DNA from: a virus
DNA length: 64,000 nucleotides
Strand: one strand, 5' to 3'
Virus record (IMG/VR): IMGVR_UViG_3300047094_002472
This document shows, piece after piece, positions 1-39,326 of this stretch; position 1 is the first letter of the stretch, and each line of letters begins with the position of its first letter. The notes below the pieces were generated by a model that worked only from the letters and a program-made list of their open reading frames with translations, made no database searches and was not told where the DNA came from. The position numbers and the translations under genes are program-made.

Positions 1-275
1 TCCCACAACCACGACCACAGTAGCGCCAACCACAACAACGGTTGCTCCCACAACCACGACCACAGTAGCGCCAACCACGACCACGGTTACTCCCACAACA
101 ACTACCACGGTAGTGCCAACCACAACAGTAGCACCAACCACAACAACGGTAGTGCCAACCACAACAACGGTAGTGCCAACCACAACAGTAGCACCAACCA
201 CAACAACGGTAGTGCCAACCACGACCACGGCTGTCCCGACAACTACAACCACAATCGCCCCGACTACTACTCCTT
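1..275 (+). repeat. Coding tandem repeat (ccaaccacaacaacggtag-type units encoding PTTTTV[AV])
   Basis: Directly visible degenerate 18/21-nt units. Confidence 0.9.
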
Positions 276-643
276 CTCCTTCAGCTTTATTACAAAAAGC
301 TTCAACTGGGGTATTTAATACATCTGCGGGTTCTGGAACATCTTCTAGTCCATTAATATGGAATGGATTAGTTGAAAATAATGGCACATATTTAATGTTC
401 ACATCTCTTACTGCCGGAATATTAAGTCTGACAATGACAGTACGCAGTGGTTGTGGTGATTTTGGGTGTGATATAATACAGGTCACGAAAAACAACACAT
501 TGGCTTGGGATCCATCCTTCCCAACCGGAGCCACACTGTCTAGATCTACAACATTTTCTGTGGCTACTAATGATATAATCAGATTGTATATCTTAAACGA
601 ATGGGGAGCGAGAGTACAATCTTTTTCAGCTAATATACAATGA
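2..643 (+). CDS. Thr/Pro-rich (mucin-like stalk) protein with beta-rich C-terminal domain, 5'-truncated by window edge; likely virion/adhesion protein
   Basis: Frame open from nt 2 (PTTTTTVAPTTTTVAP...), continuous with ORF 113..643; PTTTT(V/A) repeats to about nt 275, then about 120 aa of beta-rich sequence. Confidence 0.7.
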   Translation, partial: PTTTTTVAPTTTTVAPTTTTTVAPTTTTVTPTTTTTVVPTTTVAPTTTTVVPTTTTVVPTTTVAPTTTTVVPTTTTAVPTTTTTIAPTTTPSPSALLQKASTGVFNTSAGSGTSSSPLIWNGLVENNGTYLMFTSLTAGILSLTMTVRSGCGDFGCDIIQVTKNNTLAWDPSFPTGATLSRSTTFSVATNDIIRLYILNEWGARVQSFSANIQ

Positions 644-1870: not shown

Positions 1871-2068
1871 ATGGATAATTACCAATTTATTCCTTCCGTT
1901 CTAGACACCAAAGCTAGCGCCTCATTAGAAGCAGAAGTAGCTAAAGAGCTTAAAATTAAAGATCCAGAAAAGAGCATAGCACAATTACTACAAGAAAATA
2001 ATGAAGAAGAAACCCAACCAGACCAAAAAGAAAAAGACCAAAGCGCGCAAGAAGGTCAAAGTATCTGA
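1871..2068 (+). CDS. Small acidic hypothetical protein
   Basis: ATG at 1871 after AGAGG; overlaps start of next gene. Confidence 0.55.
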   Translation: MDNYQFIPSVLDTKASASLEAEVAKELKIKDPEKSIAQLLQENNEEETQPDQKEKDQSAQEGQSI

Positions 2069-2654
2069 AAGTGAACTATTAGAAGTTATTGAAGTTATTA
2101 GCAAAAAATTGGCCTATAAGTTTAAGTTCGGCTATCATGAGCACGAGGATATGAAACAGCAAATAACCATATTTGCTTTGGAGGGTGTTAAAAATTATGA
2201 TGGTGTACGACCACTAGAAAACTTCTTATGGACCCACGTTAGGAATCGTCTTTTTAACTATAAGAGAGATAATTACCAACGCCCCAATAAACCCTGCTTA
2301 ACATGCCCTCTGTATGATGCTCACTGTAAGGTTAGCGTTAGTCAGTGCTCTAAATATAATAACAAAGCGGATTGTGATCTATACGCTAGTTGGAGTAAAA
2401 GAAACGATGCTAAAAAGAACCTTATGTATCTAACAGGAGTAGAAGACTTTTCTTTAATTCATCAAACTCACTCTAAGGGAACCCTAGGAGATAGTGTGGC
2501 AAATAAAGAGATTTTGGACATATTAGATCGTGAACTGGGCGGAGAAGAAAGAGAAATATATTTGAAGTTTCGCGGTGGATCCAAGGTTAATAAAAGCGAT
2601 ATGTTAAAATTAACCAATAAAATACGAGAAATTTTAGGAAATAGTTATGGCTAA
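2001..2654 (+). CDS. Phage RNA polymerase sigma factor (sigma70 region 2-like plus C-terminal HTH) with Cys-rich insertion
   Basis: EDMKQQITIFALEGVKNYDGVRPLENFLWTHVRNRLFNYKR = region 2; CLTC..C..C..C insert; C-terminal EEREIYLKF region-4-like segment. Confidence 0.75.
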   Translation: MKKKPNQTKKKKTKARKKVKVSESELLEVIEVISKKLAYKFKFGYHEHEDMKQQITIFALEGVKNYDGVRPLENFLWTHVRNRLFNYKRDNYQRPNKPCLTCPLYDAHCKVSVSQCSKYNNKADCDLYASWSKRNDAKKNLMYLTGVEDFSLIHQTHSKGTLGDSVANKEILDILDRELGGEEREIYLKFRGGSKVNKSDMLKLTNKIREILGNSYG

Positions 2655-3724: not shown

Positions 3725-4323
3725 TTACATATGATCCACCGATTGTTATCACACCACCCCCTTATTCTGACCAGAGCGGAAAAGTAACCCAGCCAGCAGA
3801 TATTGTTCTTTCTGAGCTTAAGGTTACCTACATGGATACTCCACACAACAAGGTGATCCAGGCTCGCATAGAAGGTGTTCCAAATATTATCACATTAATT
3901 TCTGGCGAAACATACGAACAGATTGGCGATTGGACTCAGCAACAGATCGAAGATGGTCTAAAGCTACTATTAGGTTCTGAGCCAGCTAAATATTTAAGAG
4001 CATTGTTTCCTAAAACTATGGAAGAAGACCCGAATGGTCCCGGTACGGTTTTAAGTAAAATGATCAAGAGTCTTGGCATAGTTATGAGCGATAGTTGCTC
4101 TTGCCGTCGGCATGCTATCGAGATGAATACTCAAGGCAACGACTGGTGCGAACAGAATATTGATACTGTAGTTGGATGGCTAAGAGAAGAGGCCAACAGA
4201 AGAGGCTTACCATTCGTGGATATGATTGGTAAGTTAATGGTCGGTAGAGCCATTAAGAAGTCTCGCAAGCTTTTGGCTAATCAACCAGTACCAGAAAACG
4301 ATGAAGATCTGGATAAAGAATGA
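3721..4323 (+). CDS. Hypothetical two-domain protein with C-terminal Cys motif
   Basis: GPGTVL..CSCRRHAIEMN..WCEQN motif; translationally coupled on both sides. Confidence 0.6.
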   Translation: MITYDPPIVITPPPYSDQSGKVTQPADIVLSELKVTYMDTPHNKVIQARIEGVPNIITLISGETYEQIGDWTQQQIEDGLKLLLGSEPAKYLRALFPKTMEEDPNGPGTVLSKMIKSLGIVMSDSCSCRRHAIEMNTQGNDWCEQNIDTVVGWLREEANRRGLPFVDMIGKLMVGRAIKKSRKLLANQPVPENDEDLDKE

Positions 4324-4793
4324 TTGATGACTTTACTGTTATTATAGACACCAGAGAACAACTTCCGTGGGAGTTTGAGCTTCATGCCACGGCCAAAAAG
4401 AAGCTCGATACTGGTGACTATAGTATAGAAGGCCTAGAAGATATTCTTTGCATAGAACGAAAAAGAAGCGTGTCAGAAATAGCTAATAATATATCTGAGA
4501 AGAGATTCAAAGATGTTCTTGAACGCATGAGTAAAATGAGATATCCATTTATGCTCTTTGAATTTGATCTAGAAGATATCTACTCTTTTCCTGTTGGTTC
4601 GGATATTCCCAAGAAGCTTTGGGACAATTTAAAGATTTCTGCTAATTATATTTTAAAATACATCACCCTAATACAACTAAACTACGGCATACATATACTA
4701 TTTTGCGGCGGACCCGAGAACGCAGAAAAAATGGCCGTATCTATTATGAAAAGAGTATATGAAAAACACGCGCCACCAAAAGACAGCATTTGA
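4320..4793 (+). CDS. ERCC4/XPF-domain nuclease
   Basis: IIDTREQ ... GDYS ... IERKRS signature. Confidence 0.9.
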   Translation: MIDDFTVIIDTREQLPWEFELHATAKKKLDTGDYSIEGLEDILCIERKRSVSEIANNISEKRFKDVLERMSKMRYPFMLFEFDLEDIYSFPVGSDIPKKLWDNLKISANYILKYITLIQLNYGIHILFCGGPENAEKMAVSIMKRVYEKHAPPKDSI

Positions 4794-6842: not shown

Positions 6843-9020
6843 ATGCCAAAAAAATACCCAAAGAGTGATGCCGTACAAAATGCGGCCAATGCTAACCAAG
6901 AAGCCTATGTTACATGGAATGACGGTGATATAGAAGGCAAAAAAGTTGCATTATCAGAAGCGTCGAAATCTTTAGATGAGTTTGGTGGTTTTCAACACGC
7001 AAAGGCAAATAACAGTAGATACAGAGACTTTTCTGGACTTCTACCCAACACTTCTGGAAGACCAGGACTAACCAGAGCAGATTACGACTTTTTCCGACCA
7101 GACGAAGCAGTGCCAAGAGAGATTAAACAAATCTTTATGGCAGCTAACGATGTTTATAGTCGAGTTGGCCTAGTAAAAAACGTTATTGATCTTATGGGTG
7201 ATTTTGCTTGTCAAGGCATTAGGCTGGTTCATCCAAATAAAAGAATAGAAAAATTTTATAGAAACTGGTTCGAGAAAGTAAAGGGTGAGGACAGATCAGA
7301 AAGATTTCTTAATAATCTTTATAAAGCTGGTAATATTGTTATTAATAGACAAACAGCCAAAGTCAGCGTTAAGGTAGCAGATAATCTATATAGATCGATT
7401 GCTAGTCCTGACCTGATAGTAAATTCTGAGGAAATTAAAGTTGAGAAGAGAGAAATTCCTTGGAAGTATACTTTCATAGATCCTACATATGTAGATGTGG
7501 TGGGCGGTTCTTTATCTTCATTTGTAAGCAATAAAACATATGCAATTAATATGCCAGCAATGCTTAGAAAAATGATAAATAGCCCCAAAGGTCCAGAAGA
7601 AAAAGCAATAGTTGATCAACTTCCACCTCAGCTTATAGAGGCAGCAAAAACTAAAAAAGGCTATGTTTTAGATCCAGACAAAACTCTCGTATTTCACTAT
7701 AAGAAAGACGATTGGCAGGTTTGGGCATATCCTATGATTTATGCTATTCTTGATGATATTAATGTTGTTGAAAAGCTAAAGCTAGCAGACCTTGCTGCTC
7801 TCGATGGTGCAATCAATAATATTCGTATTTTTAAATTAGGTAGTTTAGAACATAAAATTGCTCCGACAGCAGCCGCAGCATCAAAGCTTGGAGATATTCT
7901 ACAGAATAACGTTGGTGGTGGCACGATGGATATTGTTTGGGGTCCAGACATTGAACTACTACAATCTAACACTAATGTACATCAATTTTTAGGTGAAGGT
8001 AAATATACTCCACATCTTAATAGTATTTATGCTGGTCTAGGTATTCCTCCAACACTAACGGGTACTTATGGCGCCGCTGGAACCACTAATAATTTCATTT
8101 CGTTAAAGACCCTGACACAAAGACTAGAGTATGGTCGTAAGGTGTTAATGTCGTTCTGGAAGCATGAAATTGCCATGGTTCAAAAAGCCATGGGTTTTAA
8201 GTATCCAGCAAAAATAGAGTTTGACAAGATGGATTTAAGTAATGAAGACGCGGAGAAGGCATTACTAGTACAGCTAGCTGATCGTAATCTTGTTAGTGAT
8301 GAAATGCTACAGAAGATGTTTGGATTTGATCCAGAAATGGAAAAGAGCAGACTCAACAGAGAAAACAAAGACAGAGAGAACGAAAGAATGGTTCCGAAAT
8401 CTGGTCCTTGGCATGATCCACAAACAGAAGAAAGTCTTAAGAAGATTGCTCTACAAAATGGTCTTGCGACTCCTAGTCAAGTAGACCTAGAGCTTAAGCC
8501 AAAGAAGAAGGGTGAAAAAAGCTTACTGGATATGAAAACTCCAGCACTACCAGAGCAGCAGTCAAACCCAGGACAACCAGGACAAGGTAGGCCCAAAAAT
8601 ACAAAAGATAAAGAAAAAAGAAAAACTAAAGACTTTAGCCCAAGAACAGGAGCGTCTTTACAGCTATGGGCTTTAGACACTCAAGAAAAAATAGCCAGTA
8701 TTCTTAATCCCGTCTTACTAGATTTCTATAACAAGAAAAATATGAGAAGTTTATCTAGCACAGAATATTCTGAGGCAGAAAATACTAAAACAAAAATATT
8801 GTTTTCGCTTGAGCCATTCGTTGCTATTAACGAAGACATACTAATGGCGAAGCTCAATACTATCAATAGTATTGATGTATCGACCAAATTTGCCGAATAC
8901 CAGAGCTGGAATATTGAAGCAAGTAAAGATCTCAAAAAACAACTCACCGCCGAAGAACAAAAACATACGAAGGCCTATTTTTATAGTCTGGTGTATTCTG
9001 ATCTATCGGGTCATAAATAA
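6843..9020 (+). CDS. Portal protein
   Basis: Follows TerL; about 725 aa; LVKNVIDLM, FHYKKDDWQ.W..P, LGIPP motifs typical of large-phage portals; ATG at 6843. Confidence 0.8.
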   Translation: MPKKYPKSDAVQNAANANQEAYVTWNDGDIEGKKVALSEASKSLDEFGGFQHAKANNSRYRDFSGLLPNTSGRPGLTRADYDFFRPDEAVPREIKQIFMAANDVYSRVGLVKNVIDLMGDFACQGIRLVHPNKRIEKFYRNWFEKVKGEDRSERFLNNLYKAGNIVINRQTAKVSVKVADNLYRSIASPDLIVNSEEIKVEKREIPWKYTFIDPTYVDVVGGSLSSFVSNKTYAINMPAMLRKMINSPKGPEEKAIVDQLPPQLIEAAKTKKGYVLDPDKTLVFHYKKDDWQVWAYPMIYAILDDINVVEKLKLADLAALDGAINNIRIFKLGSLEHKIAPTAAAASKLGDILQNNVGGGTMDIVWGPDIELLQSNTNVHQFLGEGKYTPHLNSIYAGLGIPPTLTGTYGAAGTTNNFISLKTLTQRLEYGRKVLMSFWKHEIAMVQKAMGFKYPAKIEFDKMDLSNEDAEKALLVQLADRNLVSDEMLQKMFGFDPEMEKSRLNRENKDRENERMVPKSGPWHDPQTEESLKKIALQNGLATPSQVDLELKPKKKGEKSLLDMKTPALPEQQSNPGQPGQGRPKNTKDKEKRKTKDFSPRTGASLQLWALDTQEKIASILNPVLLDFYNKKNMRSLSSTEYSEAENTKTKILFSLEPFVAINEDILMAKLNTINSIDVSTKFAEYQSWNIEASKDLKKQLTAEEQKHTKAYFYSLVYSDLSGHK
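8990..8996 (+). promoter_or_regulatory. KGTGTAT putative late promoter (protease)
   Basis: GGTGTAT 38 nt upstream of ATG 9035. Confidence 0.5.
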
Positions 9021-9034
9021 TACTTGGAGGCATA

Positions 9035-10504
9035 ATGCAAATATTTAAACATGAAAAACTTGATGGAATAGACGAGCTAATCCAATCACAAGCCTCAATA
9101 ACCTACGCATCTCTTGCACAACCATCAGACCCTTCTCTTTCACAAAAAATGAAGGAAATGAAGTCCATTGCCTCATTAGAAGATAAAGACCTTTATTATG
9201 TTCAATCAATTTTAGTAACATCATCTTGGAACAAAAATGACGATATTTTTGATGCTCAAGAAATTTGGATCGCAAGAAACACACCATCCCACAAACCAAC
9301 AAACCTAGAACACGATGAGCATAGTATCATTGGACATATAACAGAAAACTGGCCAATGACCGATGATGGTATCCTAATTGATAATAACACACCAACAGAA
9401 AATTTACCACAAAAATACCATATTTTAACAGGCTCTGTGATCTATACCGGTTTTTCTGACCCTGCACTAAGAGACAGAGCATATAAGCTGATTTCTGAAA
9501 TAGAGTCTGGCGAGAAGTATGTTAGTATGGAATGTTATTTTAAGGGGTTTGATTATGGCTTACTAAACAAGACAAGCGGAGAATTTAGAGTATTATCAAG
9601 AGGAGAAGATACCTCCTATTTGACTAAATATCTTAGAGCATACGGTGGTGACGGCGAGCACGAAAATTATAAAATTGGTAGAGTTTTACGAGAAATAACA
9701 TTCTCTGGTAAAGGTTTTGTAAATAGACCAGCAAACCCAGAAAGTGTTATTTTTACGAAAGATAATATGAAAAATCTAGAGCCGTCCCAAAGTTCTGAAA
9801 TAATTAATTTAGAAAAAAAGACGATTTCCGAAACAATAGGTGTATTTTCTAATCAAGCTAATTTAAAGGAGACGAATATGAGTGAACAGACCGAAGTTAT
9901 CACAAACGAAGTTACCACAACTGAAACAGAGGTAGTAGCTATGAATGACTGCTCAGAAGCACAGGCTTCCGTTACAAGCCTACAAGAAAAAACAACAGAA
10001 CTCGAAACACAACTTGCTGAAGCCAGAGAGACCATTTCGGCTCTAGAAACAGCCCAAGCAGAAGTAGCCAATCTTAAGGCTGAACTAGAAGCAGCATCAG
10101 AAGTTATCGCTGCTTATAAGAAGAAGGACGAAGAGATGGTCAAGAAAGAAAAGAAGATGAAGAGAATGGCCGCTCTCGTAGATAATGGCATCGAGGCCGA
10201 AGTAGCCGAAGCCACAGTAGAAAAATTTGATTCTCTAGACGATGCCTCGTTCGAAGCTATGACAAGCCTCCTAGCTGCTAAAAAAGCAAAAGAGGAGAAG
10301 AAGCCTGTTGTAGAAGAGAAAGAGGAAGAAAAAGAAGAAGCTTCCCAGGAAGTAGATGCTTCTGTACTAGAGAACGTCGAAGTTGAGCAAGAAATCGATC
10401 TAAGTGTTGGTGGTAACGCCTCCACAGAAATCGAAAGCACAAGAGCAGCTTTAGTTGATTTTGTTTATAATAGACTAGGTAAAAAACTTAATAAGGGAGA
10501 GTGA
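9035..10504 (+). CDS. Prohead protease with C-terminal scaffold domain
   Basis: NKNDDIF, NLEHD, VSMEC (catalytic Ser), FSGKGFVNRPANP; acidic coiled-coil C-terminal half. Confidence 0.8.
   Translation: MQIFKHEKLDGIDELIQSQASITYASLAQPSDPSLSQKMKEMKSIASLEDKDLYYVQSILVTSSWNKNDDIFDAQEIWIARNTPSHKPTNLEHDEHSIIGHITENWPMTDDGILIDNNTPTENLPQKYHILTGSVIYTGFSDPALRDRAYKLISEIESGEKYVSMECYFKGFDYGLLNKTSGEFRVLSRGEDTSYLTKYLRAYGGDGEHENYKIGRVLREITFSGKGFVNRPANPESVIFTKDNMKNLEPSQSSEIINLEKKTISETIGVFSNQANLKETNMSEQTEVITNEVTTTETEVVAMNDCSEAQASVTSLQEKTTELETQLAEARETISALETAQAEVANLKAELEAASEVIAAYKKKDEEMVKKEKKMKRMAALVDNGIEAEVAEATVEKFDSLDDASFEAMTSLLAAKKAKEEKKPVVEEKEEEKEEASQEVDASVLENVEVEQEIDLSVGGNASTEIESTRAALVDFVYNRLGKKLNKGE
9839..9845 (+). 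promoter_or_regulatory. KGTGTAT putative late promoter (nested scaffold, decoration, capsid)
   Basis: GGTGTAT 32 nt upstream of internal ATG 9878. Confidence 0.5.
9878..10504 (+). CDS. Nested in-frame scaffolding protein (internal start)
   Basis: AAAGGAG RBS just before in-frame ATG 9878 (MSEQTEV...), preceded by GGTGTAT at 9839. Confidence 0.6.
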   Translation: MSEQTEVITNEVTTTETEVVAMNDCSEAQASVTSLQEKTTELETQLAEARETISALETAQAEVANLKAELEAASEVIAAYKKKDEEMVKKEKKMKRMAALVDNGIEAEVAEATVEKFDSLDDASFEAMTSLLAAKKAKEEKKPVVEEKEEEKEEASQEVDASVLENVEVEQEIDLSVGGNASTEIESTRAALVDFVYNRLGKKLNKGE

Positions 10505-10506
10505 AC

Positions 10507-10962
10507 ATGGCGTTAAAACCAGATCGTATCGAGTCATACACAGACATCTCCTTCTTCTGCAACACAGTTGCTGAAAGAGGCGGTATCGTTGTACACGTAA
10601 CAAGTGGCAATGGGGTCAGCATGGATGATGCTGGTGCTGTCGTTGCTTATCCAACTGCTAACACAGGCACTAAGCCAGCTGGTCTTTTACTAAATGATGT
10701 TGTTAATCTTGATCTTACAAGACAGCACATCAATTGGCACAAAGACGAAGTACAGCTAGGTAGCAAGGTAACACTTCTCCGTCAGGGACAGGTAACAACT
10801 AACATGGTTGCTACTGGCGTTACCCCAGCTGCTGGTGCTGATGCTTACTATGACAATGTTGGTAAGCTTACAACAGTTGCAACAAACAGCGTTAAGGTCG
10901 GTCGTTTTCTTAGCGGCAAAGATGCTGACGGTTACGTTAAAGTAGACATCAATATTACATGA
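10507..10962 (+). CDS. Capsid decoration/cement protein
   Basis: About 150-aa beta-rich Gly/Ala/Val protein between scaffold and MCP; AAGGGAG RBS. Confidence 0.7.
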   Translation: MALKPDRIESYTDISFFCNTVAERGGIVVHVTSGNGVSMDDAGAVVAYPTANTGTKPAGLLLNDVVNLDLTRQHINWHKDEVQLGSKVTLLRQGQVTTNMVATGVTPAAGADAYYDNVGKLTTVATNSVKVGRFLSGKDADGYVKVDINIT

Positions 10963-13161: not shown

Positions 13162-14595
13162 ATGAATATTACTAAAAAATTAACAATGTTAACATATAAT
13201 GGTTCTTCCCTAGTTCTAGCCACTAGCGATATTAAACCTAACTTTAACACTATTTTTAGTATTAATGAAAGTGGTACAGGATATGTCTCTTTCTCCTCCT
13301 CCAGCTTGTTCAATTCTCTACCTAGTCTTCTTGATGGCAATACATATCTTATTGATAGTAAGAGCGAAATGCTCCCGTGGGTTCTTACAGAGATAATTAT
13401 AGATAATGGCTCCGCTACAACACCAGCGCCAACCACAACAGCGCCAACCACAACAGCGCCAGCGCCAACCACAACAGCGCCAACCACAACAGCGCCAACC
13501 ACAACAGCGCCAGCGCCAACCACAACAGCGCCAACCACAACAGCGCCAACCACAACAGCGCCAGCGCCAACCACAACAGCGCCAACCACAACAGCGCCAA
13601 CCACAACAGCGCCTACCACCACGGGCGTTCCAACAACCAGCGGCCCAACCACCACGGGTGAGCCAACAACAAGCGGTCCAACCACAACCGGTGGTCCAAC
13701 AACCACGGGCGTTCCAACCACCACGGTAGCGCCAACCACAACTGTTCCTCCGTATGCAATGTATGCGACACGAAGCAACTCTGCTCCAACAAGGGTTTCC
13801 GCTAACGGCATAGGAAACGGCTCCGCTGGTAACACTGGTAATTTTGCTAATTATGGAAGTAATGCTACCTGGAATGGAGCTATTGGTAATATTACTAGTG
13901 TAGGAACAAATGGTTCCAGCAGCTATTTTGGAACCCAGGATCAATCAGGAAATACATGGGAATGGAATGATAGTATCATACAAAGTACAAACAGAGGCAT
14001 ACTAGGAGGTAGCTATAATACAAGCATAGCTTCTGATCTATCGTCTATATCAAGAAAGTTCGCAGCACCAAACAGCGGCGCTATAAACTACGGGTTTAGG
14101 GTTTGTTCCAAATATCCTATTCCAGAAGGAAATACTCTAATTGAATTTGTACCTGTGCTTGAACAAAACAATCCTGCTAATTCTACAGGGTATGGATCTG
14201 TTTCTTACAGTTATTGTATTTCTAGATATCCTATAACGAACAGTCAATATGCTCAATTCTTATTAAGCATAGAGGGTGCGGATAGCTATAGTGCTTATGT
14301 TTCTACTATGGCATCGAATATACGAGGAGGCATTAATTCCGACTATACAGTAAAAGCTAATATGGGTAACAAGCCAGTAAACTATATTACTTGGTTTAGA
14401 GCTGCTAGATTCGTAAACTGGCTACACAACGGCATGGTATCCGGACCACAAAGCAGTCTAACCACAGAAAGCGGAGTTTATACTTTAAACGGAGCCAACT
14501 CTGGTGTGTCTTTTGCTAAAAATCCAGACGCAAACTACTGGATTCCTTCCGAAGACGAATGGTATAAGGCGGCTTACTATTTACCGACAGTATAA
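13162..14595 (+). CDS. Virion-associated protein: N-terminal domain, Thr/Pro stalk and circularly permuted FGE-sulfatase (SUMF1/CLec-fold) domain
   Basis: GTQDQSGNTWEW and GFRV occur before YPITNSQYAQFL, KPVNYITWFRAARFVNWL and IPSEDEWYKAAYY. Confidence 0.8.
   Translation: MNITKKLTMLTYNGSSLVLATSDIKPNFNTIFSINESGTGYVSFSSSSLFNSLPSLLDGNTYLIDSKSEMLPWVLTEIIIDNGSATTPAPTTTAPTTTAPAPTTTAPTTTAPTTTAPAPTTTAPTTTAPTTTAPAPTTTAPTTTAPTTTAPTTTGVPTTSGPTTTGEPTTSGPTTTGGPTTTGVPTTTVAPTTTVPPYAMYATRSNSAPTRVSANGIGNGSAGNTGNFANYGSNATWNGAIGNITSVGTNGSSSYFGTQDQSGNTWEWNDSIIQSTNRGILGGSYNTSIASDLSSISRKFAAPNSGAINYGFRVCSKYPIPEGNTLIEFVPVLEQNNPANSTGYGSVSYSYCISRYPITNSQYAQFLLSIEGADSYSAYVSTMASNIRGGINSDYTVKANMGNKPVNYITWFRAARFVNWLHNGMVSGPQSSLTTESGVYTLNGANSGVSFAKNPDANYWIPSEDEWYKAAYYLPTV
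13421..13745 (+). repeat. Coding tandem repeats (APTTT/APAPTTT, then G[VEG]PTTT/SGPTTT)
   Basis: Near-perfect gcgccaaccacaaca 15-nt units with a 51-nt higher-order period. Confidence 0.9.
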
Positions 14596-16267: not shown

Positions 16268-17542
16268 ATGTCAAATAAACGTATTTACTACGCAATCCAA
16301 CAGGTAACACTAGGCACAACAGGTGCTGATGACACAGAAGCAGCGATTCACGGTCTACAAACCGTTGGTATTACCACAAACTTCAACCTAGAGCAAGTAT
16401 TCGAGATGGGTCAGCTTGCTATCTACCAGAACATCGAAGGCATCCCACAGATCGAAGTAACCCTCAATAAAGTTCTAGATGGCTATCCATTAATTTATGT
16501 GTTAGCCACAGAAACTGGTTCCTCTCTTGGCACCAACCTTGTAGCCACCTCCGCAGACTTAGCTGGCCGTCAAAATGCTAGAACAGATATGAGACTATCG
16601 ATCTACCCAGATACGGAGTTATCTGCCACAGGTGCTACTCTTGCCAAGGGTCTTGTAACATGCACAGGCATGTACGTATCCAGTGTTAGTTATACCTTCC
16701 CTGTTGATGGCAACTTTACAGAAGACGTAACTCTAGTCGGCAACGACAAGGTTTGGAGTGATGGGGCTGTTGTAAATTCTGGCAAGTTTACAGGAAATAA
16801 TGATGTTCCTGCAGCTAATTCTGGCGTTAATCGTAGACAGCATCTAGATATGAGTGCGTGTCTATTTCCAACAGAAATTCCTGGTATCACCAACGATACT
16901 GCCAGTATTAATCATGGTAAAAATGAAGAGGGCGCAACAGATGGTGATGGCTTTAATACTCACTTCCAGAATATCACAGTAAGTGTGGATCTTGGTCGTG
17001 AAGCTATTCAAGAGCTTGGTTCTTTTGCTCCTTATCATCGCTATGTTACATTCCCAGTTTCCGTAACATCGGAGTTCTCGGTATTAGCAACAACTGGCGA
17101 CGGTATCAATGCCACAGAAGACGGCTACTATACAGCAACTAGTATTAATGGCACACCCTCTGTCGCTACAGGAAGCGAAGGTGCTTGTACTCCACGCTTC
17201 AATCTAAGAGATAATAAGATTTATCTCAAGACATGCGAAGGTACAAACATTTATCTTGGCACCAAAAATAAGTTAACATCTGTTAACTATACTGGTGGTG
17301 ATACTGGTGGTGGTAATGTTACTGTAACATATAGTTATCAAACCTTCAACGATTTCGTTGTTTGGCATGCGAACTCCCCATCAAACCCTCCCATTAGCTA
17401 TACCTTACCAACAACAACAACAACAGCACCAACAACAACATCAGCACCAACAACAACCAGTGCCCCTGGTGGTCAATCGGTAAATCGTTCGGTGCCAGTT
17501 GAAATTAAGGCTGGTGAAGTTAAGTTTCCAGGCAGAGCTTAA
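16268..17542 (+). CDS. Major tail tube protein with C-terminal Thr-rich extension
   Basis: Strong codon bias, GGAG RBS, IHGLQTVGITTNFNLEQVFEMG, position before chaperones and tape measure. Confidence 0.7.
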   Translation: MSNKRIYYAIQQVTLGTTGADDTEAAIHGLQTVGITTNFNLEQVFEMGQLAIYQNIEGIPQIEVTLNKVLDGYPLIYVLATETGSSLGTNLVATSADLAGRQNARTDMRLSIYPDTELSATGATLAKGLVTCTGMYVSSVSYTFPVDGNFTEDVTLVGNDKVWSDGAVVNSGKFTGNNDVPAANSGVNRRQHLDMSACLFPTEIPGITNDTASINHGKNEEGATDGDGFNTHFQNITVSVDLGREAIQELGSFAPYHRYVTFPVSVTSEFSVLATTGDGINATEDGYYTATSINGTPSVATGSEGACTPRFNLRDNKIYLKTCEGTNIYLGTKNKLTSVNYTGGDTGGGNVTVTYSYQTFNDFVVWHANSPSNPPISYTLPTTTTTAPTTTSAPTTTSAPGGQSVNRSVPVEIKAGEVKFPGRA

Positions 17543-34241: not shown

Positions 34242-37200
34242 ATGACAACAGAATATCAGAATATAGGATTAACTAACCCAATCACATTTTTAGATGCTAC
34301 AGTAGTATCATTTAATGGTAATCTTGGCGTTGGAAGCCAAGAAAGTTCATTAACTGTAGAACTTGTTGAGGATTGTGATTCTGGTCAGACGTTTGCCGGA
34401 GGTTTTCCTGATAGTCTCATAGGATCACCAGTATGTTTTCCAGAAAATCCTGGAGGAATGAACTTTTCTTTTTGTGGAATCATAACAAACTGGACCAGAA
34501 ATATCGGCACGTCAGGAAATACTTATAGCGTAACATTAACAGACCCAAGAAGAATACTTGAGAACTGCACACTAATCATAGACACATATGCTGGTACAGC
34601 ACTTAATAACATACCCAATGTATTTAATGTTTATAATTTCTATGAATCCGAATCGGCTATTACTAGCGGACAATGTTCAACCTTCGGAACATCTGGGATA
34701 TCCGGAGATCGAGGCATATCATATCAGGCTATTATCAATGCTCTTCAACAATCTAATTTGACTATACGAACTCCAACGGGATCTCCTTTGAGTATAGACC
34801 TTAGCGATCTCCCGTCTGGCTTTCCTCCTTCCTATAGGGCCAATGGTCCGTCGATGACTCTTCTTCAATTGATTACCGATGTTTGTGACGCTACTGGCTA
34901 TGATTTTTATGTCTACTTAAACTCTAACAGCGTTATAAAAATTGGACTAGTAGATCTTAGACAAAACCCATCATCTTTCTCTTATATACAAGGTATATCT
35001 GGCTATATTACCGATAGGTCTTTTGGTCGAGAATTAAGAATTGAAAAACAAAATTCTATTATTTTTGGTGAAAAAAGACACTATATGGCCACAGCATCTA
35101 ATTTTCTTCCTTATTTTGGAGAAAATACTAGATGTGAGCCAGTAACAGCGGTCCCCGGAGGCGGATCATGTGGCTTTAATGTCTTGGTATATACAAAACC
35201 TCTCGCCGCATCCCTTAGAAACCCAGGAGTTTTTGCTGGCGGAGAAGATCTCTATATCAATGAGTTCGACTTGAGAGCAAACTATGAATTATGGGTAGAC
35301 GCTGTACTAGCGGGCAATGCTGATTTAAGTTCATATGCTTTGACAGCTAAAGCTTGGTTTGAAGATAACGGTATGACTGGTAATTTTGCAAATGCTTTTT
35401 TTGCAGCTGGAAATGGAATAAAAGCGAGTGCCAAAATAAGTTCTGTACAAGACGTAACAGCAGGAAACCCTTCGCAAAATACATCCAGAAAGACACAAGA
35501 ATATATTAATGAAGATGCTAAAAAAATACATGGTTATATAGAGTCTCTTAGGCAAACATATTACGGTAAGCAGTTTCTGTGTACATTAAGTGAAAATATT
35601 TGTGTTGGTAATACACAAGACATAATGACCTCCGGAAATTCTGCCTCATCAGTAACTTGTTTAAGCACAGAGAAATTTTACAGTGCGGAACCAACAAATG
35701 ATGGTGGTTGGGTGGAAACTGGTGGAACTGTTATGGGCGTATCCGATCCCTACCTCGGTTTTTTTAGACAAGATGACGGTCGAGTAGGAGCGTTTGCTAA
35801 ATTTACTACCGGTAATGTTGGCTCTGGCCGTAAATTAAATCTAGATAATATTTCTGCTGATGAGGTATTAGTAAATGATAATGGGTCAGAGGCATACGTT
35901 AAGGCAGAGGTTGGAGAAAAAATCTATAAGATTAATAATCAAACATACGTATTAATAAAGTTTAGTGACGCCTGTTTAACGACCCTTAATTCTCAAGAAG
36001 CACAGTTTCCAGCAGCATTTCTTGCCGCGGCATCCGCAATAGCAAAAAGCTCTGGTTTAACCAGTGGTGGCTCGGGAGTTACAAATCAGGCTATGTATAT
36101 ATGTGATAGCTTGAATATGTCTAGTATGAATGAGGCTGTATCTGGGTTAGATGTTTCTTCTACTAATAAATACCAGCTAACACCCGGAGCTGTTACGCCA
36201 ATCATTGCCGCAATTCCGATGAGAAGCAATATTAGCACATATGGTCCATACTCTAATCCGAATATTGGTCAAAACGCCGGCGGTTGTAGTGCGGAACAAA
36301 ATACAGACCTTGCCCCATGGGTTTTTGGTGGCTCTAATGCTATGAATACTGCTGGAAATTTATTAGCACGACTATCCCAGATGGGATTAAATCAGGCAGA
36401 GAGTGGCTCTGTCACCCTCGTTGGTTTGCCAGACCTACCATTTCTAGGGAATGATTATAATAGCAATCCTAATCTTAGTGGTATTAATGTTAATTTTGGA
36501 TCTTCTGGTATTACAACAACCTATACCTTTCAAACATTTACTCCAAAGTTTGGTGACTTAGCAAAATCTGCTGTGGAGCAAATGAAGAATGCCGCTAAAA
36601 ACAGACAAAAGCAGCTCCAGTTTTTAAGAAACCAAGCTATAATGTCTCATAACATTAATAGAAAACTAAAAACCGTGGGTGGAGGAACAAGGAAACCGGC
36701 AGATAAAAATGTGGCAGACGGACAAACCCTTCATAGATGCATGATTGCTGATATGAAGGATTGGTACGAACAGCCGTCGGGAGATAGTCAAAGAACTGTT
36801 GTAGGTATAGATACTCTGCCAAAATCAGTACTAGAATTAAGATTTAACTACGCCAAAAAAGCATTTATGAGTTTGGATGGTTTATTTGGACCAGTATGTA
36901 AAGCTGGGGATAATGGTTGTGGCCTACCTAGATATGCTAATTATCAAAATAATAATTTTGTACAAATTAATAAAACTAATAGTTCTCCATTATCACCACA
37001 ACCGCCTTTTGATAAAGAGGGAAATTGTAACGATCCAATAACTATGGATCAATATAATCTACGAATTAATCAAAAATATTTAGATCCTCTTACTAATAAG
37101 GTTTCAGGAAGTAATCATCATCACGATGGAGATGGCGCCGGTCACGCCATAGACCTTTTAGGTAGGGGTGATACTCCGCCGGATGAGACGATGTTAATGA

Positions 37201-39326
37201 ATGCTTTGGCTCAAAATGCTAATAATAGATATTCTGAGGACTATAGATTTTTAGGATTAAGAGGTCCGTTGGTACTACATGCTTGGGGGTATGATCTTGA
37301 TGGTAAGCCAGTACCCAACGAAGCGGACACTGACGCTGCTGCTGGCAATGGTACGTTTAAAGATACGGAACTCAAAGACAAGTTTTTAAAAGACTGGTTA
37401 AACAAACCCAAAACATGGCCAGTTGCTCCTGTTGACTTGCGTTTTGATCGAGAGCGCGGCATGTGGGTTAGTCCACAAGCATATAAAATTGTGGTGGCCA
37501 AAATTGTTAAAAAAGTATCAGCTTTTGGAGAGGGCAGAGCAATACTTATAAATGAGAAGGGTGGAAATAAATACTACAAGAATTTATATGATGAAAATGG
37601 AGAGTTAGTAGCAGCCGCCGATCAAGAGGGGAAGAGTTGCGAAAGTACAGGAGGAGAGAAAGAATATAAGTGGATTTTAGTTAATGCAGGACTATGCTCA
37701 AAGAAATATTATTGCTATACTATTGGCGGTCAAAGCAGCGAGTGTAAGCAGTCTAACTTACCCAATGGAGAATATCTAGACCCCATAAGAGGCCCAATAC
37801 CACCAGTTGGCGGTCCTTACGACTCCTGTGCCGGAAATCCGTGTAAACAGTTTGGGGCGTGTTGTTATTCGGATATATGCGAAGATGGAGTAGAAAAGCA
37901 AGACTGCGAAACATATTACGGTGGAACGTTTTATCTAGAAAAAACTTGCGATGATATAGACTCTATATGCAGAAAACCGGGAGCTTGTTGTTACTACAGT
38001 ACGGATAGAGATGATTATTATGGGTGTGACGAGAACATTCCAAAAAATACCTGCGAAAGTGAAGGAGGTGTTCACTATTTAGGTAAAACTTGCGACCAAG
38101 CAAATTGTGAACCTCCAACAACTACGCCAGCAGGAACTACGCCAGCGGGAACTACGCCAGCGGGAACTACGCCAGCGGGAACTACGCCAGCGGGAACTAC
38201 GCCAGCGGGAACTACGCCAGCGGGAACTACGCCAGGGGGAAGTACAACACCACCCCCATCATACTACTGCATTAACGACGGACAAGGCAATTGTTATTGC
38301 TCTCAAAACGGTAGTGGACAAGCCTATTCTGGATATGATGCTTGTTATCAAGCTTGTTGCGGTACCACCAGCCCACCCACAAGTCCACCCACAAGTCCAC
38401 CAGGATGTAATCTTAGCGACGAATGTATCGACCAGATTTTTGACAGAGTTTGGTCTAGGATTATGGAGAATACTACCTCTTGCGACAGCGGAGGTGGCAC
38501 TACCAGTGGTCCGGGCGAAGGCACTACCAGTGGTCCGGGCGAAGGCACTACTAGTGGTCCGGGCGAAGGCACTACTAGTGGTCCGGGCGAAGGCACTACC
38601 AGTGGTCCGGGCGAAGGTACAACCAGTGGTCCGGGCGAAGGTACAACCAGTGGTCCGGGCGAAGGTACAACCAGTGGTCCGGGTACCACACAGGCTCCTA
38701 TTCGATGGAGATGTGATCAAAATACTAATCAGTGCGTAGTAGATCCGAGCGGACCATATGAGAATGAATTTGGTTGCAACTATGACTGCTTATATGCTAC
38801 CACAACCACAGGCAACCCAACCACAACAACGACCACAACAACGACCACAACAACGACCACTACTACCACGAGAAGACCAACAACAACCACTAAGGCTCCT
38901 CCACCCACACAGCCTCCAGTACCAACATCTCCACCACAAACAACAGCGGCCCCACCAACCGCTCCACCGTCATCAACATCAGACCTTAGTGGCAGCACCC
39001 CTATGATCAAGGTCGTAGATAGAATCGGTAAAACACATGCTGCTGGAGATATGGTTTATGCTTATTATGATACTTATAAGAGTGAATATATAGTATTAGA
39101 TAAGTATGAAGAAGTGTCTACTCCAACAATATACGGTCAGTGGGATGGAACCACTATTAAAGTGGAGGGCTTATCTGGAATAACCACAGAGAACAACATT
39201 GATATAGGATCATCAATAACTGTAGAGAATACCTTAAATCTTACAACACCAGATGAAGACTGTACTGTTAGAGGAGTTGCTATAAAGTTCTTAACTAGCG
39301 ACAACCCATACAAAGAGAATAGTTAA
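34242..39326 (+). CDS. Large tail-tip/hub (central fibre-like) protein with Cys-rich GACC modules and Thr/Pro/Gly tandem repeats
   Basis: 1694 aa, last gene of tail operon; hub-like N-terminus (LTVELVED, VTLTDPR, LLQLITDVCD..GYDFYV); GACC repeats; tandem repeats. Confidence 0.65.
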   Translation: MTTEYQNIGLTNPITFLDATVVSFNGNLGVGSQESSLTVELVEDCDSGQTFAGGFPDSLIGSPVCFPENPGGMNFSFCGIITNWTRNIGTSGNTYSVTLTDPRRILENCTLIIDTYAGTALNNIPNVFNVYNFYESESAITSGQCSTFGTSGISGDRGISYQAIINALQQSNLTIRTPTGSPLSIDLSDLPSGFPPSYRANGPSMTLLQLITDVCDATGYDFYVYLNSNSVIKIGLVDLRQNPSSFSYIQGISGYITDRSFGRELRIEKQNSIIFGEKRHYMATASNFLPYFGENTRCEPVTAVPGGGSCGFNVLVYTKPLAASLRNPGVFAGGEDLYINEFDLRANYELWVDAVLAGNADLSSYALTAKAWFEDNGMTGNFANAFFAAGNGIKASAKISSVQDVTAGNPSQNTSRKTQEYINEDAKKIHGYIESLRQTYYGKQFLCTLSENICVGNTQDIMTSGNSASSVTCLSTEKFYSAEPTNDGGWVETGGTVMGVSDPYLGFFRQDDGRVGAFAKFTTGNVGSGRKLNLDNISADEVLVNDNGSEAYVKAEVGEKIYKINNQTYVLIKFSDACLTTLNSQEAQFPAAFLAAASAIAKSSGLTSGGSGVTNQAMYICDSLNMSSMNEAVSGLDVSSTNKYQLTPGAVTPIIAAIPMRSNISTYGPYSNPNIGQNAGGCSAEQNTDLAPWVFGGSNAMNTAGNLLARLSQMGLNQAESGSVTLVGLPDLPFLGNDYNSNPNLSGINVNFGSSGITTTYTFQTFTPKFGDLAKSAVEQMKNAAKNRQKQLQFLRNQAIMSHNINRKLKTVGGGTRKPADKNVADGQTLHRCMIADMKDWYEQPSGDSQRTVVGIDTLPKSVLELRFNYAKKAFMSLDGLFGPVCKAGDNGCGLPRYANYQNNNFVQINKTNSSPLSPQPPFDKEGNCNDPITMDQYNLRINQKYLDPLTNKVSGSNHHHDGDGAGHAIDLLGRGDTPPDETMLMNALAQNANNRYSEDYRFLGLRGPLVLHAWGYDLDGKPVPNEADTDAAAGNGTFKDTELKDKFLKDWLNKPKTWPVAPVDLRFDRERGMWVSPQAYKIVVAKIVKKVSAFGEGRAILINEKGGNKYYKNLYDENGELVAAADQEGKSCESTGGEKEYKWILVNAGLCSKKYYCYTIGGQSSECKQSNLPNGEYLDPIRGPIPPVGGPYDSCAGNPCKQFGACCYSDICEDGVEKQDCETYYGGTFYLEKTCDDIDSICRKPGACCYYSTDRDDYYGCDENIPKNTCESEGGVHYLGKTCDQANCEPPTTTPAGTTPAGTTPAGTTPAGTTPAGTTPAGTTPAGTTPGGSTTPPPSYYCINDGQGNCYCSQNGSGQAYSGYDACYQACCGTTSPPTSPPTSPPGCNLSDECIDQIFDRVWSRIMENTTSCDSGGGTTSGPGEGTTSGPGEGTTSGPGEGTTSGPGEGTTSGPGEGTTSGPGEGTTSGPGEGTTSGPGTTQAPIRWRCDQNTNQCVVDPSGPYENEFGCNYDCLYATTTTGNPTTTTTTTTTTTTTTTTTRRPTTTTKAPPPTQPPVPTSPPQTTAAPPTAPPSSTSDLSGSTPMIKVVDRIGKTHAAGDMVYAYYDTYKSEYIVLDKYEEVSTPTIYGQWDGTTIKVEGLSGITTENNIDIGSSITVENTLNLTTPDEDCTVRGVAIKFLTSDNPYKENS
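38121..38240 (+). repeat. 8 x 15-nt coding tandem repeat (TTPAG)
   Basis: actacgccagcggga units. Confidence 0.95.
38496..38684 (+). repeat. About 8 x 24-nt coding tandem repeat (GTTSGPGE)
   Basis: ggcactaccagtggtccgggcgaa units with synonymous variants. Confidence 0.95.

Follow-up and report, generated by a model that had tools for sequence, protein, structure and literature searches.

The FGE-sulfatase domain carried by a 477-aa protein of the virus IMGVR_UViG_3300047094_002472 is a complete circular permutation, in which the normally C-terminal half of the domain precedes the normally N-terminal half. The virus record comprises 152,676 bp and is rated by CheckV as 100% complete, and the gene lies within the stretch of 64,000 nucleotides that was analyzed here (hereafter the window). 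It occupies positions 13162-14595 of the plus strand as one open frame without stops, and its product has three parts, namely an 86-aa N-terminal domain, a Pro/Thr stalk of ~110 aa and a 282-aa FGE-sulfatase domain (aa 196-477); the coordinates given for the domain in a first-pass annotation of the sequence (13753-14595) span this last part. The protein is probably a virion-associated, tethered binding protein with a permuted, non-enzymatic head of the FGE-sulfatase (C-type-lectin-like) type; its location on the virion, binding function, ligand and evolutionary route are what we infer from the evidence given below. The gene is organized as follows.

13162..13419, plus strand: N-terminal domain (aa 1-86), presumed virion-attachment module, conserved in stalked relatives.
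13420..13746, plus strand: Pro/Thr-rich tandem-repeat stalk (aa 87-195), defined by TRF repeat units.
13747..14106, plus strand: segment A (aa 196-315), which in an ordinary FGE-sulfatase domain is the C-terminal part and runs from Y.YAT to GFR, defined by Pfam, the canonical-order HMM and superposition.
14017..14097, plus strand: loop (aa 286-312) corresponding to the segment that is variable in DGR proteins and to the active-site segment of FGE (alignment to the T. curvata FGE), a candidate ligand-binding surface.
14107..14136, plus strand: new linker (aa 316-325, SKYPIPEGNT) leading from the old C-terminus to the old N-terminus, defined by the canonical-order HMM.
14137..14592, plus strand: segment B (aa 326-477), which in an ordinary FGE-sulfatase domain is the N-terminal part, with EWYKAAYY at its end, defined by Pfam and the canonical-order HMM.

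The Pfam profile PF03781 (FGE-sulfatase) matched the open reading frame at 44.1 bits (cut-off 23.3, E 2.6e-11) in two stretches. When the halves were scanned apart, aa ~224-314 corresponded to profile positions 144-253 and aa 349-471 to positions 35-122, i.e. two partial matches in swapped order, as the first-pass annotation had anticipated. A canonical-order HMM made from 27 normal single-domain relatives, with its domain core at ~27-305, placed aa 191-325 at positions 179-311 and then aa 326-476 at positions 27-180, with scores of 140 and 196 bits for the two halves. By these coordinates the pieces amount to exactly one domain, with nothing missing and nothing duplicated, and the cut separates the KAAYY helix from the Y.YAT motif, precisely where it had been placed from the motifs alone. 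The canonical linear order, with the N-terminal half first, is therefore not that of the phage domain (144-253 precedes 35-122, and 179-311 precedes 27-180), and the swapped order of the halves marks it as a permuted variant rather than a classical member of the FGE-sulfatase family. The family profile, when run against PDB sequences, matched pFGE, CarF and bacterial FGEs in swapped order as well. The linker, which falls between positions ~305 and 27 of the canonical HMM, varies more than any other block in the alignment of the domain. A scan of the whole 152,676-bp genome detected exactly one FGE gene and recovered the same two pieces. A PHROG 'kinase' label for the B half (phrog_18508, E 5e-4) was set aside as a carry-over from FGE-like 'kinase' PDB titles.

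Structure prediction treats the swapped halves as a unit. When AF2 was supplied with only the 29 same-register homologues, its model was poor (pLDDT 65) and Foldseek returned no matches for it, indicating that a good model depends on an alignment with tandem relatives; with a 109-sequence alignment of all sequences collinear with the query, tandem proteins included, a single compact domain was obtained (pLDDT 95.6, pTM 0.94, no segment below 50, segment B at about 90-99). The top ~35 PDB matches of this model in Foldseek were all FGE-fold proteins, among them CarF, pFGE, FGE, TvpA, EgtB, PvdO, CalU17, ToxD and PorK, and each alignment covered 81-108 columns with E about 0.02, such short alignments being expected where a sequential aligner meets a permutation. 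In VIA-align, model residues 1-123 superposed on TvpA 212-329 (Z 6.0, rmsd 1.9 A over 100 residues, 24% identity), residues 1-125 on human FGE 239-371, and residues 132-279 on EgtB 196-334, the N-terminal part of the EgtB FGE domain (Z 3.2). Among 48,161 PDB representatives, Z values above 3 were reached by FGE/CLec-fold proteins only and no full-length, in-order match to the model was found; sequential aligners covered one half of the model at a time, with a best Z of 5-6. The superposition on FGE and TvpA suggested earlier thus holds for segment A, the sequential alignment being confined to one half, and it bears out the notion that the normally C-terminal segment, which is variable in DGR proteins, now lies mid-chain. 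The swapped halves are accordingly modeled, and predicted, to fold as one normal domain.

The same arrangement occurs in independent assemblies. L090, a viral contig of another sample, encodes (gene at L090:1857-3140) a domain that is 96% identical to that of the window and has an identical junction, GFRVCSKYPIPEGNTLIEFVPV, and an identical linker. The two alleles differ synonymously at 29 codons and non-synonymously at 12, which points to purifying selection. Two further contigs, L001 (91 kb) and L004 (141 kb), carry a gene with the same succession of N-terminal domain, PT stalk and permuted domain, located directly upstream of the same block of 213-aa, 314-aa, ~395-aa and ~350-aa ORFs that leads on to the tape measure. 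In these two contigs the gene is preceded by a 2,042-2,355-aa protein and a ~440-aa Laminin_G_3-like protein (L001:1-8004, L004:11-7473), and the large protein of L004 has a weak PATR match. As the upstream genes differ, being head-completion genes in the window and other genes in L001 and L004, the permuted-FGE gene appears to travel with the downstream tail block. Taken together, the HMM coordinates, the independent contigs with the same junction and the confident single-domain model support the clean circular permutation that the first-pass annotation had claimed.

The N-terminal domain is conserved in all stalked relatives, being present in P0004 (66% identity), P0006, P0007, P0008, P0019 and the L004 ORF, a full-length 473-aa frame (7470-8891) that starts with the same N-terminal motif and continues into a PT stalk; in L090 it is 97% identical. 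Comparison of this domain with Pfam, PHROG and NCBIfam gave nothing meaningful, a word-indexed homologue search with it retrieved P0004 only, and a search of the ESM Atlas led to unnamed clusters at 0.91-0.92. Its presumed role is that of a virion anchor. The stalk that follows is genuine, as had been proposed: TRF identified a 51-nt unit present in 3.8 copies with a 99% match (13420-13613), and degenerate 18/33-nt units continue it to ~13741. Stalk length varies among homologues, and the near-identical L090 allele has a stalk that is 51 aa shorter, which, in combination with the almost perfect 51-nt repeat, indicates that stalk length is evidently changing fast. Pro/Thr linkers resembling the stalk were also observed in at least three other genes, namely ORF 2..643, the C-terminus of a 424-aa ORF (16268-17542) and a 1,694-aa ORF (34242-39326), where they lie at window positions 1-300, 17400-17470 and 38100-38960; judging from their sequences, PT linkers appear to be a general connector in this phage.

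The 477-aa gene is preceded, in this order, by genes for the large terminase (TerL), the portal and a cement-protein homologue, a 340-aa ORF and two small ORFs. The large terminase and portal were identified by PHROG matches, and the 340-aa ORF, which has no family match, is a putative capsid protein by position only. Downstream are ORFs of 213 and 329 aa, then of 424, 349 and 298 aa, and then a 3,634-aa tape measure; the 329-aa ORF is a 'virion structural protein' according to PHROG and is the sole ORF so named in the conserved block downstream of the 477-aa gene. Positions within this order suggest the roles of the remaining ORFs, and the gene order alone is the basis on which the 477-aa gene would be assigned to a neck module. 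Several neighboring genes are also recognizable. The 153-aa ORF just 5' of the putative capsid gene (window 10501-10962) matches Phage_cement PF22758 (E 1.6e-9) and the XM1_gp53 minor capsid protein, a 157-aa ORF overlapping the start of the large terminase gene (window 4320-4793) contains an ERCC4 nuclease domain (PF02732, E 7e-10), and a 217-aa ORF (window 2001-2654) has a weak Sigma70_r2 match that is below the cut-off (E 2.5e-4); Sigma70_r4 proteins occur near FGE genes in related phage contigs. The terminase is only ~25% identical to those of Bacillus and Microcystis phages, and no cultured-phage relative of the 477-aa protein was found among 50,697 records by tblastn at E <= 1e-5.

The best 78 loci in IMG/VR are essentially all permuted, mostly at a register of ~210 (see below), while the best 80 loci in a set with one genome per prokaryote species are all canonical and all have a C-terminal PEP-CTERM-like tail. 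Sixty-eight of these 80 belong to two phyla, Verrucomicrobiota (33) and Planctomycetota (35). The resemblance to PEP-CTERM surface proteins noted in the first-pass annotation is therefore sound, but its restriction to planctomycetes is not, and the look-alikes from Verrucomicrobiota and Planctomycetota offer a weak hint, from sequence likeness, as to the host. The closest cellular sequences are the PEP-CTERM/signal-peptide FGE surface proteins of these phyla, single and tandem, which show 40-57% identity per half and belong to the same non-catalytic subtype, and the tandem ones, with their B-A-B-A arrangement, give a collinear A-B alignment. They are canonical and have a PEP-CTERM-like tail, whereas the phage protein is permuted and lacks PEP-CTERM: the PEP-CTERM sorting signal (PF07589) gave no match in the 477-aa protein, which ends six residues after EWYKAA, and no signal peptide is visible in it. 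All seven contexts of permuted proteins that were inspected are phage-like, and several permuted relatives lie in fibre-type cassettes beside Mtd_N, fn3 or Phage_tail_C proteins. For instance, in L009:712-7313 a 610-aa protein of tandem permuted FGE type and a second, 286-aa FGE protein adjoin Mtd_N (526 aa) and fn3 (732 aa) proteins in what looks like a receptor-binding cassette. In L097:2953-6738, a 1,262-aa viral protein combines an N-terminal permuted FGE domain of the ~210 register with a C-terminal lactonase/NHL-type beta-propeller.

Several lines of evidence converge on a tethered virion adhesin: the protein combines an anchor-like N-terminal domain, a fast-evolving flexible stalk and a non-catalytic head of lectin fold, its gene has the head genes on one side and the conserved tail block on the other, its relatives are found in fibre cassettes, and it is kin to bacterial surface proteins and DGR binding proteins. 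In the proposed mechanism, the small N-terminal domain would presumably fix the protein to the particle, and the ~110-residue Pro/Thr repeat would serve as a flexible stalk of quickly changing length, with the complete permuted FGE-sulfatase domain held at its end. In the head, the old C- and N-termini are joined by the 10-residue linker, and the new chain ends lie where the KAAYY helix would otherwise lead on to the Y.YAT strand; both catalytic cysteines have been lost, and the domain is non-enzymatic. The head would most likely bind a host-surface ligand, like DGR variable proteins and PEP-CTERM surface proteins, probably through the loop region before GFR that is now mid-chain, for which aa ~286-312 represent the candidate surface.

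The alternative that survives best, although we regard it as unlikely, is that the protein is a binding module with a purpose other than host adsorption, either a capsid or neck decoration that makes virions stick to particles, polysaccharide gels or non-host surfaces (a Hoc-like 'adherence') or a sensor for fibre deployment. T4 Hoc and similar decoration/adhesin proteins combine a flexible tether, a small attachment module and an outward-facing binding domain, and their genes are located among head or neck genes. The likeness to Hoc would be a functional analogy only, as Hoc has an Ig-like fold as opposed to the CLec/FGE fold, and the 477-aa phage protein is known from genes alone. Nevertheless, the gene lies beside the head-completion genes and well away from the distal tail genes, which follow the tape measure, and the long flexible stalk, with no trimerization or fibre motifs, is closer to decoration proteins than to tail fibres. 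The location of other permuted relatives in fibre-type cassettes argues against a decoration and for the adhesin.

It is very improbable that the protein is instead a phage-borne enzyme of the FGE/EgtB/PvdO superfamily that modifies, for example, a host or phage protein. Membership in the Pfam FGE-sulfatase family would be in line with catalysis, as would the 'formylglycine-generating enzyme' labels that its relatives bear in several databases. However, the catalytic hallmark of FGE, two copper-binding cysteines after RGGS, is absent: in an alignment to the T. curvata FGE (PDB 5nxl, 6s07), both cysteines of the FLCHESYC segment face non-cysteine residues in the whole clade, in agreement with the early remark that the pair was not evident, and the domain of the 477-aa protein has only two cysteines, at unrelated positions. 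Moreover, there is no DinB or other partner domain of the EgtB kind, the domain is mounted on a long PT stalk behind an N-terminal domain of structural-module type, and the sequences most closely related to it are surface proteins of PEP-CTERM type and phage proteins from fibre cassettes. On this sequence evidence the permuted domain appears not to be an enzyme. FGE and pFGE/SUMF2 (PDB 1y1e, 1y4j; PF03781) show sequence homology to both phage halves, and pFGE likewise lacks the catalytic cysteine pair; the phage protein differs from them in its swapped halves, its PT stalk and its origin in a phage structural gene.

A shade less probable still is that the permuted domain is a variable protein of a DGR, hypermutated in the loop before GFR. 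Its best structural match is indeed a DGR variable protein, TvpA (Treponema denticola variable protein 1, PDB 2y3c), over the part that contains the variable region, and the amino acid differences from the L090 allele cluster in aa 296-310, where 5 of the 12 are found compared with 3 of the 29 synonymous differences (Fisher p = 0.003 for a region picked post hoc). Against this reading, no match to a reverse transcriptase (RVT_1, PF00078) was found in the complete 152,676-bp genome, no template repeat of 13750-14595 was found in the 64-kb window (direct repeats, seed 10, minimum length 40), and the genome has a single FGE gene; a DGR target was rejected on the first two grounds. The earlier view of the fold as a DGR-diversified scaffold thus remains valid for the position of the usual variable segment, now mid-chain, but not for diversification of this gene. 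By analogy, TvpA and the permuted head would both represent a non-catalytic, ligand-binding FGE subtype of the CLec fold with a variable loop before a GFR-type strand; TvpA has the canonical order and a C-terminal, DGR-diversified variable region, whereas in the phage protein the order is permuted and the segment is mid-chain, and neither a reverse transcriptase (genome) nor a template repeat (window) was found.

The weakest alternative, that the swapped order is an artefact produced either by an assembly chimera or by a decaying tandem FGE-FGE remnant without ends and without a functional domain, is refuted in practice, for even though tandem B-A-B-A proteins can be aligned collinearly over 99% of the domain (35-48% identity), so that a truncated tandem gene would look alike at first sight, the pieces sum to exactly one domain (179-311 plus 27-180), the same junction recurs in the different-sample contig L090 and, within the ~180 register, in 26 or more protein clusters, synonymous changes exceed non-synonymous ones by 29 to 12, and AF2 predicts one confident domain.

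Relatives of the domain are numerous, with 3,194 word-indexed homologues and 6,833 representatives at E <= 0.001, and both the permuted homologues and the tandem FGE-FGE relatives whose existence the first-pass annotation had considered were found among them. The 258 retrieved proteins that were classed by the canonical HMM comprised canonical singles, canonical tandems, many of them with PEP-CTERM, and three permuted registers that are 'closed', the second piece ending at the HMM position where the first one starts.

Register ~180: the 477-aa protein of the window; 26 clusters, in a stalked clade (n=8) and a stalkless clade of ~305 aa (n=18).
Register ~155: P0065 and P0117.
Register ~210: P0067 and P0208; many modules within proteins of 300-2,200 aa.

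Tandem permuted forms occur in the ~155 and ~210 registers (P0003, P0009). Additional 'overlap' forms (HMM start 184-195, end 208-212) were discounted as proof of incomplete trimming, as they probably reflect PT linkers matching a Thr/Ala-rich part of the HMM. In ~210-register proteins Pfam sees only positions ~35-135, and the permutation therefore escapes routine annotation. The ~210 and ~155 domains of uncultured phages share with the 477-aa protein the rewiring principle, the clade and the fibre-like cassettes, with Pfam seeing a half-domain; the 477-aa protein differs in its cut at ~180 and in having a single head on an anchor and PT stalk rather than a module in a giant fibre.

With respect to evolutionary origin, FastTree grouped every permuted unit into a single clade (support 0.894), while in a quick IQ-TREE search the backbone was not resolved and some canonical singles fell among the permuted units; AU tests rejected neither the monophyly of the ~180 register (p 0.78) nor that of all permuted units (p 0.63). 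A single permutation origin followed by later register shifts would be compatible with these trees, and the fact that canonical and tandem forms exist side by side with single forms cut at different positions appears to fit the classical route of duplication and then truncation. Most plausibly, the permuted form would have arisen from tandem FGE-FGE proteins via loss of the outer half-domains. It is possible, though we propose it only tentatively, that permuted FGE-fold heads constitute a large family of binding modules, almost confined to phages infecting Verrucomicrobiota or Planctomycetota, which originated once from host-type tandem PEP-CTERM FGE proteins and were re-cut by phages at ~155, ~180 and ~210 for N-terminal, C-terminal or internal positions in fibres, the ~180 form on its rapidly length-variable stalk being a first-contact adhesin displayed on the capsid or neck.

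Few natural scaffolds for variable ligand binding are as well known as the FGE/C-type-lectin fold, of which a natural and well-populated circular permutation is described here; no description of a permuted FGE-sulfatase domain was found in the literature searched, the scope of which excluded most subscription journals. It provides what is most plausibly a clean case of permutation by duplication, in which canonical, tandem and three differently cut single forms are all extant, and it accounts for the half-domain FGE matches that annotation pipelines report in many phage proteins. To this the present case contributes the ~180 register, a head carried on a stalk and anchor, the polymorphism in stalk length and a side-by-side comparison of three registers. 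The scaffold evidently tolerates having its putative binding loop moved mid-chain, which may be useful for protein engineering. To our knowledge, few phages of Verrucomicrobiota and Planctomycetota have been described, and the permuted heads are likely to represent a class of phage adhesins for which these two phyla provide the nearest cellular look-alikes.
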